Assembly (NCBI GenBank): GCA_013287845.1
Contig: JABDDA010000002.1
Location: forward strand, 10,605-74,604
Length of the DNA: 64,000 nucleotides
Source: Gammaproteobacteria bacterium
Lineage (GTDB): Bacteria > Pseudomonadota > Gammaproteobacteria > DSM-16500
Direction of reading: 5' to 3'
Below are positions 31,501 to 40,500 of the stretch, one piece after another. The position numbers are program-made. Positions within the stretch are counted from its first letter, which is position 1, and each line of letters starts with the position of its first letter.

Positions 31501-34500
31501 CCGTACAATAACTTTCATCGAAACAAATAAAATTAAATTCTTGGCTAGACCATAAAATTAATTCTTCACTCAATCGAGAAAGATGCATCATGATCAACGC
31601 ACTGGCGGATAAAAATTCCACAACAAAATCTCGATCACTCACTGCATCCAATGTATTAAAATAAATATGATCAAACCCTAATTCAGTCGCGACAAATTGT
31701 TTATCAATCGCAAGACTGGTTCCATTTAATGCTGCTGCACCGAGCGGTGATATATTCACACGCGTCCAATTATTTTTTAAGCGATCAATGTCACGTTGAA
31801 ACATAGCAACATATGCGAGCCAATGTTGCGCTAAATAAATCGGCTGTGCTCGCTGAAGATGAGTGTATCCAGGAAAAATAATATTTTTATTTTTTTTTGC
31901 TAATGTGATTAATGCATTTTGTAAACAAAATAATAATTTTATAATGACGACAATTTGTTTACGCAAATATAAATGTAAATCAAGTGCAACTTGATCATTA
32001 CGACTGCGCGCAGTATGTAATTTACCCGCAGTTTCACCAATATATTCCGTAAGAATACGTTCTATATTCATGTGAATATCTTCATCTTCTATTCTAAATT
32101 GCAATTCATTTTTAGAAATCGCATGAGTGATTTTTTTTAATCCCATTTGTATTTTTTTGTTTTCTTCTACTGTAATGATTCCACACTGCTGCAACATGTT
32201 CGCATGCGCCATGCTTCCTAAAATATCTTCATGCGCTAGTTCAACATCAAAATGAATGGATGCAACATATTCTTCAACATGGAAATTGGTTTCAGTGGTA
32301 TATCGTCCTCCCCATAATTTTTTATTCATAATTTTTTCTCAAGATGATGATATGTTTGCGTTTGCAAACCCCATAATTTAATAAAACCCACAGCAGCGTG
32401 ATGATCAAATTGATCTTCTGCTGCATACGTCGCCAATTGTTTTACATATAAAGAATACGGTGATGATCTTCCCACAACCGTAGCATGTCCTTTATGTAAT
32501 TTTATTCTGACTTTTCCTGTCACACGTTGTTGTGTTGTTTGAATGAAGGCATATAACGAATCACGTAACGGTGAAAACCAAAGTCCTTCATAAATTAAAT
32601 TTGCAAAATAATTTTCTATCATGGGTTTCATATGTGAAACTTCTCGCACAAGCGTGAGCGCTTCTAATGCTTTATGTGCAGTGATTAATGTCATTGCAGC
32701 AGGTGCTTCATACACTTCTCGTGATTTAATTCCAATTAATCTATTTTCAATATGATCAATACGACCAACACCATGCAATCCAGCAATTTGATTTAATTCT
32801 GTGATCAATTCAACAAAAGATTTCGGCTGATCATTTAATGTTGTTGGAATACCTTTTTCAAATCCAATGGTAATTTCAACTGGATGATCGGGTGTTTGAT
32901 TAATATTTTTTGTTAATGCATAAGCAGCTTCAGGTGGTTCAGCCCAGGGATCTTCTAATATTCCACATTCACAACTTCTTCCCCATAAGTTTTGATCGAT
33001 ACTAAATGGATTATTTAAATCAATCGGCAATGGAATATCATGTTGAGTCGCATAATGAATAGCATCTTCACGCGACATAGGATTTTCTCTTGCAGGTGCA
33101 ACAATTTTTAAATGGGGTGCCAGTGCTTTAATCGTCACGTCAAAACGAACTTGATCATTTCCTTTTCCTGTACAGCCATGTGCAACAGCTTCTGCATTTT
33201 CTTTCATTGCAATTTCAACTAATGCGCGCGCAATGAGCGGTCTTGATAAAGCAGAAATCAAAGGATAAATGCCTTCATAAAGTGTGTTGGCTTGAAGCGC
33301 AGGAATTAAAAATTCATTCGCAAAATTTTCTTGCAAAGGCAACACATAACATTTGCTTGCACCAATTTTTAATGCTTTTTCTTGAATTGGTTGTAATTCT
33401 TTTCCTTCACCGACATCCATCGCAACTGCAATCACGTCATAACCGTAATGATCTTGCAGCCATTTAATCGAACAAGACGTATCTAAACCACCCGAGTATG
33501 CAAGAATAATTTTTTTAGACATAATTTATTTCCTCATTTTTTAATAAATGTAAAAGCAATGCTTTTTGAATATGTAATCGATTTTCACTTTGCTGATAAA
33601 TGACTGAGCATGGCTGATCAGGTAATGTGTGACTCACTTCTGTTCCACGCACCATTGGCAAACAATGCATAAAAATAGCTTCAGGTAAGGCATATTTCAT
33701 GAGTGCTTCATTCACTTGAAAGCCATCAAAAAGAAAATGATTATTTTCATTTTCAAATCCCATGCTCGTCCATACATCGGTGTAAACAGCATGTGCATGA
33801 GCAACTGCTGCGTCAGGAGAAGAAAAAGATTTTATTTTTCCTGAATGCGCATGTGATTTTTCTATACTTTTTTCTAAAATATTTTCATCAGGTCCACGCG
33901 TTTCTGGACAACAATAATGAAGATGAATTCCCATTTGCGGCGCAAGCAATAATAAACTATGCAAAATATTATTTCCGTCACCGATATAACTTAATGTTAA
34001 TCCTTGCAGTGAACCAAATTTTTCATGCAGCGTTAAAAGATCCGCTAATATCTGGCAGGGATGATGCAACGCAGATAATCCATTAATAATAGGCACTTTT
34101 GATGTTTTACACATCTTTTCTAAAATACTATCTTCATGTGTTCGCACGACAATTGCGTGACAATAACCACTTAACACACCGGCTTGATCTTCGGGTGTTT
34201 CTGTTTTTCGTGTGGACTCTACACTTTCAATGACATCTCCACCTAATTCTCGAACAGCGACCGAAAAACTAAATCGCGTACGCAAAGAGGGCTTATCAAA
34301 TAATAATGCAAGATGGTGTCCATTTAATTCATTAGAAATTTCTTTTTTTGCACGTTTAGATTTTAAAAAAATTGCATCAGATAGAAGCGATTCAATTTCT
34401 TTTTTTGTTAATTCTTCACCTGTTAAAATATGCTTTGGCTTTTGAATGGATTGCACTAAACGAATATTTTCTTGCAAAGAAATAAGATGAAAATTATTTT

Positions 34501-37500: not shown

Positions 37501-40500
37501 CACATGCTTGTCCAATGACAATGGGGCCTGCTCCAATAATTAAAATATTTTTAATATCATTTCTTTTAGGCATAACTTTTCTCTATCATGGATTTAAATT
37601 GTTTAAACAATAGGGTTAATTCAATGGGGCCCGGTCCTGCTTCAGGATGTCCTTGAAAACCAAACGCAGGTGTATCTGTTCTTTCTATTCCTGCAATTGT
37701 GCTATCAAAAAGAGATCGATGTGTGACATTCAAACACGAAGGTAAATTTTCTTCTGAAACAACAAATCCATGATTTTGACTGCTGATAGAAACCACACAT
37801 GTATTCATATCTTGAATAGGATGATTTGCACCGTGATGTCCAAAAATCATTTTTTGTGTTTGCGCACCACTTGCAAGTGCGAGTAATTGATGTCCCAAAC
37901 AAATTGCCATCATTGGAATTTTATAAATTAATAATTTTTTAATGGCATCGATTGCATATGTACACGCTGCAGGGTCACCTGGCCCATTTGATAAAACAAT
38001 TCCATTCGGTTTTAATGAAACAATTTCTTCTACTGAAGTCATGGCAGGCACAATGGTGACAGCACAATTTAATTTAGAAAGACAATTTAAAATGCTTCGC
38101 TTCACACCAAAATCGTAAACAACAATATGATGTTTATTTTTTTGTTGTCCCCATGAATAGGATTTTTTTGTTGTGACTTCTTGCACTAAATCTTTTCCTA
38201 ATAATCCTGAATAATTTTTTGCATATTGATGTGCTTTTTCATAATCAATATTTCCTGTCATGATGCAACCCGATTGACTGCCAAATTGACGCAAATGATG
38301 CGTTAATGCACGTGTATCAATTTCACTGAGTGCAATGAATTTTTGTTCTTTTAAAAAATTTTGTAATGTATTTTCTGCTCGCCAATTACTTGCGATCGTT
38401 GAAATGTTTCTCATGATGGCTCCTTTCGCAAAAATGCGATCGGATTCCATATCGAATGAATTCACACCGACATTACCAATATGAGGTTGTGTGAAAACAA
38501 TTAATTGTTCGGTATAAGAAGGATCTGTTAATACTTCTTGATAGCCTGTTTGAGCTGTATTGAAAACCACTTCACCAGAAACATGTCCTGCGTGACCTAC
38601 ACTGACTCCTTCAAAGAAGGCTCCATCGGATAAAACTAAAATACCTGGGTTATTCATTTTTCGCGCCTTTTCTCGGTTGTATATTTATACGTTTATGTGT
38701 ATTATTATACATAATGAAATAAATGTAAAGAGCGAGGTGTTTACGATGAAGTTCAGTTCAGCCACAACAAAGCTATCACTCACTGAAAACCTTCAAGTGG
38801 AAAAATTTTCTGATGTAAAAACAGGTGATGTGATTTTAGCTGAAGTATTAAGCCAAAATTCAGCTTATCCTTATCTTGAACAAACAGATGGGGAATTATC
38901 TCGATTAGAAATTGGAGACAAAATTATTGGCGTCATTGGAGCAAGACAAGCATTGCGTGGTTTTGTCGGTTATTCACCTAAAAGAATAAATAATCAAAAT
39001 CCACTTTCATTATTAAATATGGGCGGCGTGATTGGTTGTCATGTGGATTCTGCAGTGGGATTAGGAGAACCCGCGAAAGTGAAATATCTTGGAACGGTGG
39101 TTGATCATCACGGCATTGTAAATATGAATCGCTCTACTCTACCGAATACCTCTTCTATCTTAAAAACACGTCAAATTATTTTAATTTTAGGAACCTGTAT
39201 GAATGTCGGAAAAACATCGAATGCAGAAAAAATAATTTTTTCAGCAACACAAGCAGGATTCAAAGTAGGTGCTGCAAAAATAGCAGGTGTTGCTGCAATA
39301 AAAGATTTGAACTGTTTTAAAAATGCAGGCGCAATTGATGTGAAAAGTTTTTTAGATTGCGGCTTACCTTCAACAGTCGATGCAGAAGATCTCGCTCAAG
39401 TTGTAAAAAATATTATTAACGCATTGAACGGTGATTTACTTGTCATTGAGTTAGGCGATGGAATCATGGGGCATTATAAAATTGAGAGTGTTCTAACAGA
39501 TCAAGAAATTATTTCACATGTCACTTCCATCGTCGTTTGTGCAGCAGACCTTGCTGCTGCCTATGGCGCTAAAAAATATTTAGAAGAATTTAAAATTAAA
39601 ATTAATGTGTTCAGTGGTCCTGCAACAGATAATATTTCAGGATCGCATTACATTGAAGAAAAATGGGGAATCCCCGCAATTAATAGCGTTAAATTTCCCA
39701 ATCAACTTTTCAAATTATTACATGCAAGGAGTGCAACATGATTCCATGCGCGATTGTGGGCGGATCAGGCTATATCGGCGGAGAACTCATTCGACTTTTA
39801 TTATCACATCCTAAAATTAATTTAGTCGCTGTTACAGCTAATGAAATGGCAGGTTTTCCGATATCAAAATCACATCCTAACTTAAGTCATGTGGATATGA
39901 ATTTTAATACGTTAGAAAATATTCATCCTGCCGAAGTTATTTTTTCTGCACTTCCTCATGGAAAATTAATGGAAGTGATTCATTCATTTTCTGGAAAAAC
40001 TATTATTGATACTTCAGCTGATTTTCGTCTTCAAAACCAATCTGAATTTGAAAAATTTTATAAAACATCTCACTGCGCATTTGAAAAAACAAAATTATTT
40101 TCATATGGATTGCCCGAATTATTTCGATCCACAATAAAAACCGCAAAAAATATTGCAGCACCAGGTTGTTTTGCAACTGCAGCAATTCTTTCTATTTTTC
40201 CCATTGTCGCTGAACAGCTAAATAAAGAAATTATCATCAATGCCGTCACAGGATCCTCAGGTTCTGGAATAAAACCTAAAGATAAAACAAATCATTCTTT
40301 TCGCGCAGATAGTTTTTATGCGTATGAATTATTTAATCACCGTCATGTTCCAGAAATAAAACAAGCACTGCTTCATAAAACAGGGCATGATATTGATCTT
40401 ACTTTTCAACCGCATTCTGGGCCTTTTGTTCGCGGCATTTATGCAACATCAATTATTAAATTAAATAAAAAAATTACCCGATCAGAATTATTAAACATTT

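Follow-up and report, generated by a model that had tools for sequence, protein, structure and literature searches.

Within a 64,000-nucleotide stretch of contig JABDDA010000002.1 from a gammaproteobacterial genome (the whole stretch is hereafter the window, numbered from its first letter), we analysed a gene that joins CarB, the carbamoyl-phosphate synthase (CPS) large subunit, to ArgF, ornithine carbamoyltransferase (OTC). It is a single open reading frame (ORF) of 1352 codons on the minus strand (33515..37573), translated without an internal stop, and encodes, in order, CarB in complete form, a regulatory domain of reduced length, a linker of 14 residues and an OTC that is likewise complete. 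From N- to C-terminus its parts are the following.

35918..37573, minus strand: N-terminal ATP-grasp half (carboxyphosphate domain) and oligomerisation domain, residues 1-552 (Pfam CPSase_L_D1, D2 and D3; NCBIfam CarB)
34781..35917, minus strand: C-terminal ATP-grasp half, the site of carbamoyl-phosphate formation, residues 553-931 (second CPSase_L_D1/D2 pair; match of the AlphaFold2 (AF2) model to 1bxr)
34478..34780, minus strand: reduced MGS-like regulatory domain, residues ~932-1032 (alignment with an internal deletion, residue mapping, AF2)
34436..34477, minus strand: linker, residues 1033-1046, in which the natural CarB C-terminal tail runs on into the OTC N-terminal tail
33515..34435, minus strand: OTC domain of the anabolic type, residues 1047-1352 and the stop codon (NCBIfam, PDB matches, motifs)

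Pfam recognises in the fusion two copies each of CPSase_L_D1 and CPSase_L_D2, a CPSase_L_D3 (424-502), OTCace_N (1047-1184) and OTCace (1190-1342), and its search returned no MGS domain. Against the NCBIfam CarB equivalogs NF003671 and TIGR01369 the whole protein scores 1474 bits (cut-off 599) and 1378 bits (cut-off 1027), and it is 56% identical to Escherichia coli CarB across residues 1-971. Both equivalog alignments end near model position 966-976 of 1052-1058, in agreement with a regulatory domain about 30 residues shorter than that of E. coli. The AF2 model, built for residues 553-1352 from a 31-sequence alignment, has an overall predicted local distance difference test score (pLDDT) of 84.9 and a predicted template-modelling score (pTM) of 0.62. 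In this model the reduced regulatory domain retains its fold (beta-alpha-beta pattern, pLDDT 73-94), and linker residues 1033-1044 form a helix with a pLDDT of about 59. The CPS part matches E. coli CPS 1bxr (E = 4e-47), and the OTC part resembles the OTCs of Pyrococcus furiosus, Mycobacterium tuberculosis and Bacillus anthracis, with template-modelling scores of 0.92-0.94 and a root-mean-square deviation of about 1.9 Å; among the PDB matches listed for the model, no chain spans both parts. An earlier, sequence-only reading of this stretch had described a 1352-codon ORF holding a complete CarB with both ATP-grasp halves and a shortened regulatory domain, running without a stop into a transcarbamylase, and the translation, Pfam (with OTCace_N starting at 1047) and NCBIfam agree with that description.

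At the junction the DNA reads CAG AAA AAA AAT AAT, with a run of eight A (A8) at 34497-34504. One extra A would give CAG AAA AAA AAA TAA, that is, a stop, so a frameshift artefact needed excluding. Under that explanation a base is missing from the A8 run, whether by a recent frameshift or as an artefact of sequencing or assembly, and carB and argF are truly separate genes, as they are in relatives split by a frameshift (L083) or a stop (L085). A protein search, however, returned 30 further fused clusters with both halves (1309-1372 amino acids, 55-69% identical), from independent samples of Legionella massiliensis, L. drozanskii LLAP-1, unclassified Legionella, Tatlockia, and metagenome-assembled genomes of Legionellales and Gammaproteobacteria. 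In all 31 aligned fused proteins the C-terminal '..LQ' motif of CarB continues in frame through a variable 10-15 residues into the OTC motif KH(L/F)LTGEEL, and the Lys-Lys codons that make the A8 run occur in the window protein and in none of the other 30. Support at the DNA level came from Logan contigs of one public soil-metagenome run, not from raw reads: an independently built unitig of 1433 bp, with a word depth of 287, spans 33950..35382 without any difference or alternative branch. In addition, A8 runs are frequent in the window (39, four of them within the fusion ORF; G+C content 34%), and the position of one at the junction of so AT-rich a sequence is unremarkable. Because the 30 independently sequenced homologues are in frame with differing linkers and the 287x unitig is exact, we exclude a frameshift artefact and reject this explanation, which keeps practically no credence; a missed stop or frameshift, the concern attached to the sequence-only reading, was not found.

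The same run could instead be read as a device for obtaining two products from one gene, either by slippage at A8 (-1, giving Lys and then TAA) or by internal initiation at TTG or GTG codons in the linker, given that A AAA AAA followed by an out-of-frame TAA stands exactly at the domain boundary. Yet the run is kept in no relative, and inspection by eye found no Shine-Dalgarno-like sequence ahead of the linker TTG and GTG codons; two products seem to us extremely improbable. Programmed slippage at A8 as a general mechanism is ruled out, because relatives do not share the run and runs of this kind abound. Elsewhere within carB (35354..35407), a minor unitig of 55 nt (depth 32) carrying a 1-nt indel was seen beside the major one of 54 nt (depth 348); this is an error bubble or, alternatively, a minor variant with a frameshift.

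The transcarbamylase half proved to be of the ornithine type, as the sequence-only reading had it from motifs. The whole fusion exceeds the cut-offs of the OTC models NF001986 (333 bits, cut-off 306) and TIGR00658 (302 bits, cut-off 281), and its C-terminal 323 residues alone score 338 and 306 bits against the same cut-offs. The rival models all stay below theirs, both with the whole fusion (aspartate, 142 of 263; N-acetylornithine, 143 of 288; putrescine, 199 of 500) and with the C-terminal residues (147, 150 and 204 bits, respectively). By these NCBIfam cut-offs, an aspartate, N-acetylornithine or putrescine carbamoyltransferase is ruled out. The closest solved relatives by sequence are the anabolic OTCs of B. 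anthracis (4nf2, the best) and P. furiosus. The window protein carries the OTC motifs HHPCQ, DVWTSMG and HCLP, and nearly all 31 fused proteins keep RTH, HPCQ, GDGNN, DVW(T/A/S)SMG, HC(L/M)P and NR(L/M/K). The carbamoyl-phosphate motif is S-L-R-T-R in the window, not the canonical S-T-R-T-R; 30 of the family's 31 members have S-(L/F)-R-T-R and the remaining one has S-F-H-T-R, with the Ser and Thr kept throughout. Judged on profiles and motifs, the fusion has the features of both the CarB and the OTC families, except for a lost nucleotide site (see below) and this one substitution in the carbamoyl-phosphate motif.

Could one half nevertheless be catalytically dead or repurposed, with the OTC serving only as a trimerisation or regulatory module, or acting on N-acylated ornithine? 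The SLRTR motif speaks for this, as does an Acidobacteriota locus that pairs the family of a 331-residue protein encoded next to the fusion operon with an N-acetylornithine-type carbamoyltransferase (361 bits, cut-off 288), and neither argE nor argJ was found in the window. Such a loss is hard to reconcile, however, with the OTC cut-offs passed where the N-acetylornithine model reaches 143-150 bits of 288, with the conservation of DVWTSMG, HCLP and all carbamoyl-phosphate ligands over 31 proteins of 55-69% identity, and with the persistence of the same OTC on its own in two relatives (L092, L083). We thus judge a dead or repurposed half very unlikely.

Regulatory-site residues, numbered by alignment to E. 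coli CarB, were compared in the 31 fused proteins. In the window protein Ser948 and Lys954 are replaced, Thr977 and Lys993 are deleted, and Thr974, Asn1015 and Thr1017 are also replaced or deleted. The pattern is general: no protein of the 31 has Ser948 (most have a hydrophobic I, V or L there), 27 have a replacement at Lys954 and most have one at Thr974, every protein has Asn1015 and Thr1017 replaced and Thr977 either deleted or replaced, and Lys993 (31 of 31) and Val994, which fall within the internal deletion, are likewise lost by deletion or replacement. Retained in all 31 are Glu783, Asp791, Glu892 and Thr (or Ser) 1042; the first three contact the delta-amino group of ornithine in the Thoden/Holden structures. 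For E. coli CPS, inhibition by and binding of uridine monophosphate (UMP) depend crucially on Thr977 and Lys993, the S948F enzyme is insensitive to UMP and inosine monophosphate (IMP) while retaining ornithine activation, and Thr1042 binds the ornithine carboxylate (PMC6245113). By this residue mapping, the UMP/IMP pocket is destroyed in the fused family and the residues of the ornithine site are retained.

The gene neighbourhood is that of arginine synthesis. Upstream, the stop of carA overlaps the fusion start by 8 nt and, downstream, argG overlaps the fusion end by 8 nt and is followed by argH, an arrangement already noticed in the sequence-only reading. The operon carA-fusion-argG-argH is divergent from a second one, which comprises the gene of the 331-residue protein and argC-argB-argD-argR. 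The cluster, in addition to the fusion, consists of:

30881..32329, minus strand: argH, argininosuccinate lyase, last gene of its operon (Pfam Lyase_1, ASL_C2)
32326..33522, minus strand: argG, argininosuccinate synthase (Pfam Arginosuc_synth, Arginosuc_syn_C)
37566..38657, minus strand: carA, CPS small subunit (glutamine amidotransferase), 363 amino acids (Pfam CPSase_sm_chain, GATase; 53% identity to E. coli CarA by tblastn)
38678..38711, no strand: tandem ARG-box-like palindromes, candidate ArgR operators (inverted repeats in the 88-bp divergent promoter region)
38746..39741, plus strand: 331-residue protein, first gene of the divergent operon (no Pfam or NCBIfam match)
39738..40742, plus strand: argC (TIGR01850, 353 bits)
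40702..41559, plus strand: argB (TIGR00761, 222 bits)
41552..42748, plus strand: argD (TIGR00707, 484 bits)
42765..43217, plus strand: argR, arginine repressor (best matches are arginine-repressor models, just under their cut-offs: NF003457, 154 of 194; TIGR01529, 129 of 130.45)

The two palindromes, TGTATATTTATACG and TGTATTATTATACA, are 14 bp each and stand 20 bp apart; their TGnAT-N4-ATnCA shape is that of ARG boxes, as in the E. coli consensus. Chance would give 0.62 matches to the pattern in the 64 kb of the window; there are three, two of them in this promoter region. L001 and L083 also have a tandem ARG-box-like pair upstream of carA, L092 has one upstream of argF, and L085 has a single box. 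Conserved sites of this kind and arginine neighbours together place the fused gene in a cluster of the arginine-regulon type. As far as its residues and its neighbourhood can tell, the fused CPS is most likely insensitive to nucleotides, dedicated to arginine and controlled by ArgR.

The 331-residue protein of the divergent operon belongs to an uncharacterised family. It has more than 3700 homologues, and in each of the three loci that were checked, namely L091 (Acidobacteriota), L092 and a JGI contig, they stand immediately upstream of argC. A 2026 GapMind preprint predicts a family of this kind (ACG33_RS14135) to be an alternative N-succinylglutamate synthase (an alternative ArgA) distantly related to DgcN. 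In our AF2 model (pLDDT 94) the protein adopts a SIMIBI P-loop fold, with DgcN 7xrj (E = 1e-5) as one of many SIMIBI matches, and a sequence-profile search of the PDB gave generic P-loop matches only (FtsY, MobB, BioD). It is thus a candidate alternative N-acylglutamate synthase. The family's partner in the window and in L092 is a canonical OTC, not an N-acylornithine carbamoyltransferase, so a deacylase step is still missing from the pathway; L083 has argJ between argC and argB, whereas the window cluster is without argJ. A different supply is suggested in Legionella, where two fused operons (L081, 4250..6236; L089, 4459..6474) start with an amino-acid ATP-binding cassette (ABC) transporter (SBP_bac_3, permease and ATPase). 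With this transporter present and argC, argJ, argB and argD not nearby, an imported precursor such as ornithine might be converted to arginine. L. pneumophila is an arginine auxotroph; some other Legionella species carry argR, the ABC transporter, argG, argH, carA and carB::argF together, and could turn imported ornithine into arginine.

Other genes of the window were recorded in passing. Adjoining the arginine operon on the plus strand (29016..30788) are ORFs for a 17-kDa-antigen-like lipoprotein, a Host_attach / baeRF family 12 protein and an EfeU-like iron permease scoring below the NCBIfam cut-offs. Farther out, on the minus strand (27765..28841), a YhcG-type nuclease extends over two adjacent ORFs, with DUF1016_N at 28221..28841 and the PDDEXK domain YhcG_C at 27765..28202, and the gene looks interrupted. 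One tRNA (12365..12438, plus strand) is the sole Rfam match in the window.

Neighbour joining on 916 columns of the CarB part gave a tree, without support values, that gathers all fused proteins into one clade, with four unfused ones (P0032, P0034-36) nested inside. The clade is set apart from the canonical gamma- and betaproteobacterial CarBs, the Legionella housekeeping copies included. Three relatives show how the fusion may have come undone. The locus of P0032 (L083), argR-argD-argB-argJ-argC divergent from carA-carB-argF-argG-argH, is the same cluster as that of the window, with carB ending in ...SLQKRYSYDN and a stop, and argF, in the +1 frame with an 11-nt overlap, beginning MTTKVKPKHFLTGEE. 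In L085 (ENA contig_1331, from a 2.0 Mb genome) an in-frame stop separates the halves, and argF (13166..13486), with an internal deletion that leaves 106 amino acids, is an apparent pseudogene; argG, the ABC transporter and argH are retained. L092 (ENA contig_52973, 749 kb) has a stand-alone ArgF of 347 amino acids (6869..7912, minus strand), and both carA and carB are absent. This ArgF opens with a remnant of ~45 residues, made up of the ~30 residues with which CarB ends and, after them, the linker; the protein is 74% identical to window residues 1015-1344, the ARG boxes stand directly upstream of argF, the 331-residue-type gene is 75% identical to that of the window, and the remainder of the cluster is intact. 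L092 is thus a deletion of carA and carB out of a former fusion, and it shows an OTC half that functions, or has at any rate survived, by itself. A single old fusion of an adjacent carB-argF pair in Legionellales, later split or lost in some lineages, is thus probable from tree and loci.

A wider search, with window residues 700-1352 against 1.84 billion representatives, found one full-length family representative (P0013) and a protein of 752 amino acids, 43% identical, which joins the C-terminal CarB half to an OTC (P0362). It also found a chain of 1905 amino acids, CarA-CarB-OTC (P0363), with an intact regulatory region, a low-complexity linker of ~75 residues and an OTC scoring 349 bits (cut-off 306). 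The locus (L095, 175..5892, on JGI 3300045300, a 6.2-kb contig of 65.5% G+C) is a single uninterrupted ORF. Its N-terminus resembles an organellar targeting peptide, which suggests a eukaryote, and we regard it as probably a eukaryotic, independently evolved CPS-OTC fusion. The same search turned up further fusions (P0377, P0473, P0367, P0447), namely CarB-ATCase, that is, with aspartate carbamoyltransferase (1396 amino acids, and 1267 without its N-terminus), ArgH-OTC (743 amino acids) and ArgB-OTC (605 amino acids).

If the fused CPS serves arginine alone, pyrimidines must be supplied otherwise, a question the sequence-only reading had raised in proposing an arginine-dedicated enzyme. Our query, the canonical CarB of a Legionellaceae locus with greA behind carB (L008), retrieved a CarB of 1068 amino acids, with its MGS domain, from L. 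massiliensis (P0184), and another under the name of L. drozanskii (P0209). In L. massiliensis GCA_000756695.1 the fusion is on CCSB01000002 (argR divergent from ABC transporter-argG-argH-carA-carB::argF) and the canonical carB-greA on CCSB01000001. Canonical Legionella CarBs keep all nucleotide-site residues and have Leu in place of Glu892 (P0126, L. clemsonensis; P0158, Legionella sp.; P0184, L. massiliensis; P0205, L. pneumophila), and L. pneumophila, with its Leu892 CarB, is not among the fusion matches listed. The canonical protein thus mirrors the fused paralogue, one with the UMP site and without Glu892, the other the reverse, which suggests that regulatory sites were divided between a pyrimidine and an arginine CPS. 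The second, canonical CarB of L. massiliensis, its nucleotide site intact, makes the fusion an arginine-dedicated second CPS in relatives of the window organism. The literature describes specialised CPS pairs mainly for Gram-positives, with Bacillus, Geobacillus and Lactobacillus, and for fungi, and Gram-negatives as having a single CPS (PMC6245113). The pyrimidine question is in this way answered for L. massiliensis.

For the window organism itself, the fusion might be real and yet be the sole CPS, serving both pathways, with carbamoyl phosphate leaking to an ATCase encoded elsewhere and the fusion merely biasing the flow toward arginine. Most Gram-negative bacteria have a single CPS (PMC6245113), the 64-kb window holds neither a second carB nor pyrB, and a search of the source run with the canonical carB (L008) gave nothing but pieces of the fused gene at 285x and one carB-like contig at 48x; that search, at 80% likeness, is insensitive, detecting only stretches at least 80% identical. 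This possibility is also at odds with the destruction of the UMP/IMP site, through which pyrimidine feedback control acts, with an operon bearing ARG-box-like sites, with the separate canonical CarB of L. massiliensis, and with L092, which lost the CPS part and kept the remaining arginine cluster, so that another source of carbamoyl phosphate must exist in that lineage. A sole, shared CPS seems unlikely on balance. The carB-like contig of the source run (6.6 Mb of contigs) is 27,984 bp long and its gene has a motif typical of the fused clade; its depth of 48 is six-fold lower than that of the fused gene, and it is probably from another organism. An exact-peptide-pattern scan of genome contigs had found the fused loci L001 and L002 only, its patterns missing the Legionella genomes.

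Overall, we consider it likely, with fairly good confidence, that the ORF is a bifunctional CarB-ArgF which, with CarA, forms an arginine-dedicated CPS whose product is consumed by the tethered OTC. In this scheme CarA, from the overlapping upstream gene, and the fusion would constitute a glutamine-dependent CPS for arginine synthesis, and the carbamoyl phosphate would be consumed by the OTC domain tethered ~14 residues past the end of CarB; use of the product in cis is probable. The resulting citrulline would pass to ArgG and ArgH, encoded in the same translationally coupled operon. By homology, the OTC domains would trimerise like other OTCs into a (CarA-CarB-OTC)3 particle of ~570 kDa, and carbamoyl phosphate would be handed over locally by proximity channelling. 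Ornithine would be both the activator of the synthase and the co-substrate of the OTC, and we propose that carbamoyl phosphate would then be made only with its acceptor present. Arginine would repress expression via ArgR. It is tempting to extend this to a bacterial 'citrulline synthase' complete in itself, with three CarA-CarB arms on a core formed by an OTC trimer, switched on by ornithine and without equilibration of carbamoyl phosphate with the cytosol, which would leave the canonical CarB, with its UMP site and without Glu892, to pyrimidines only. We hold this extended version to be possible but tentative, and would sooner expect it to fail in some part than to hold in full.

Several points weigh against the bifunctional, arginine-dedicated enzyme. 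Channelling and trimerisation are inferred from homology. The AF2 model, with its pTM of 0.62 and low-confidence linker, predicts no defined geometry between both active sites. Glu783, Asp791 and Glu892 may be conserved for other structural roles, and the carbamoyl-phosphate motif departs from the canonical one. The cluster has no argA, argE or argJ as a source of free ornithine (for argE and argJ, none in the 64-kb window), and with no second carB or pyrB in the window this CPS might also feed pyrimidines there. Finally, a tree without support values is a weakness of the evolutionary argument.

The matter bears on a long-standing question. Carbamoyl phosphate is labile, can carbamoylate proteins and is common to arginine and pyrimidine synthesis, and how it is protected and partitioned has been studied so far in CAD/URA2 and in complexes that hyperthermophiles and mitochondria form non-covalently. 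A covalent CPS-OTC would offer a tractable bacterial system for channelling in the arginine branch and for the structural route from the CPS site to the OTC, with natural split, stop-codon and CPS-deleted variants usable as controls, and with a paralogue pair whose regulatory sites are apparently divided. If true, the scheme would amount to covalent partitioning of two carbamoyl-phosphate pools in a Gram-negative, and to a covalent counterpart of the mitochondrial CPS1-OTC metabolon.

How does the fusion compare with known systems? A 2018 review of carbamoyl phosphate names, as CPS fusions, glutaminase-CPS, CAD and URA2, plus non-covalent channelling complexes, and does not list a CPS-OTC fusion (PMC6022934). 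More generally, the CPS-OTC architecture was not described in the reviews of carbamoyl phosphate, CPS and OTC (PMC6022934, PMC6245113, PMC8517447) or in full-text literature searches, whose scope left out most subscription journals. Members are nevertheless already in public databases, among them L. massiliensis CDZ77984.1 / UniRef A0A078L1T9 and L. drozanskii WP_065235901.1 / A0A0W0SV75, automatically named for one activity only, either 'carbamoyl-phosphate synthase large subunit' or 'ornithine carbamoyltransferase'. Thus the suggestion of an undescribed architecture, made in the sequence-only reading, stands as regards the literature, but the protein belongs to a conserved Legionellales family that databases already hold.

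In CAD of animals and URA2 of yeast and Neurospora, like in the fusion, CPS is covalently joined to the transcarbamylase that consumes its product, and a pathway-specific CPS exists beside a second one, as for the fusion in L. massiliensis; partial channelling is documented in CAD/URA2 (PMC6245113, PMC6022934). The fusion differs in carrying an OTC, not an ATCase, in its ~14-residue linker without a dihydroorotase or pseudo-dihydroorotase spacer, in having the glutaminase as a separate gene, carA, in its bacterial host, and in a nucleotide feedback site that is lost, not used. It would work like CAD/URA2, yet with its different transcarbamylase, missing spacer and separate glutaminase it lies outside that family. 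E. coli CarB (1bxr, 1jdb, 1ce8) has the same ATP-grasp halves and oligomerisation domain and shares the ornithine-site residues; unlike it, the fusion has a regulatory domain ~30 residues shorter, has lost the IMP/UMP ligands, and carries an appended OTC. In Bacillus subtilis, carB lies directly upstream of argF (argCJBD-carAB-argF), in the same order as in the fusion. The arginine-specific CarAB of B. subtilis, Geobacillus stearothermophilus and Lactobacillus plantarum is, as proposed for the fusion, a second, arginine-repressible CPS beside the pyrimidine one (PMC6245113); carB and argF are separate genes there and fused here. The same purpose, delivering labile carbamoyl phosphate to OTC, has been proposed for the carbamate kinase-OTC complex of P. 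furiosus and the mitochondrial CPS1-OTC clusters (PMC6022934, PMC8517447). Those complexes are non-covalent, unlike the fusion, and the Pyrococcus producer is carbamate-kinase-like, not an ATP-grasp CPS.

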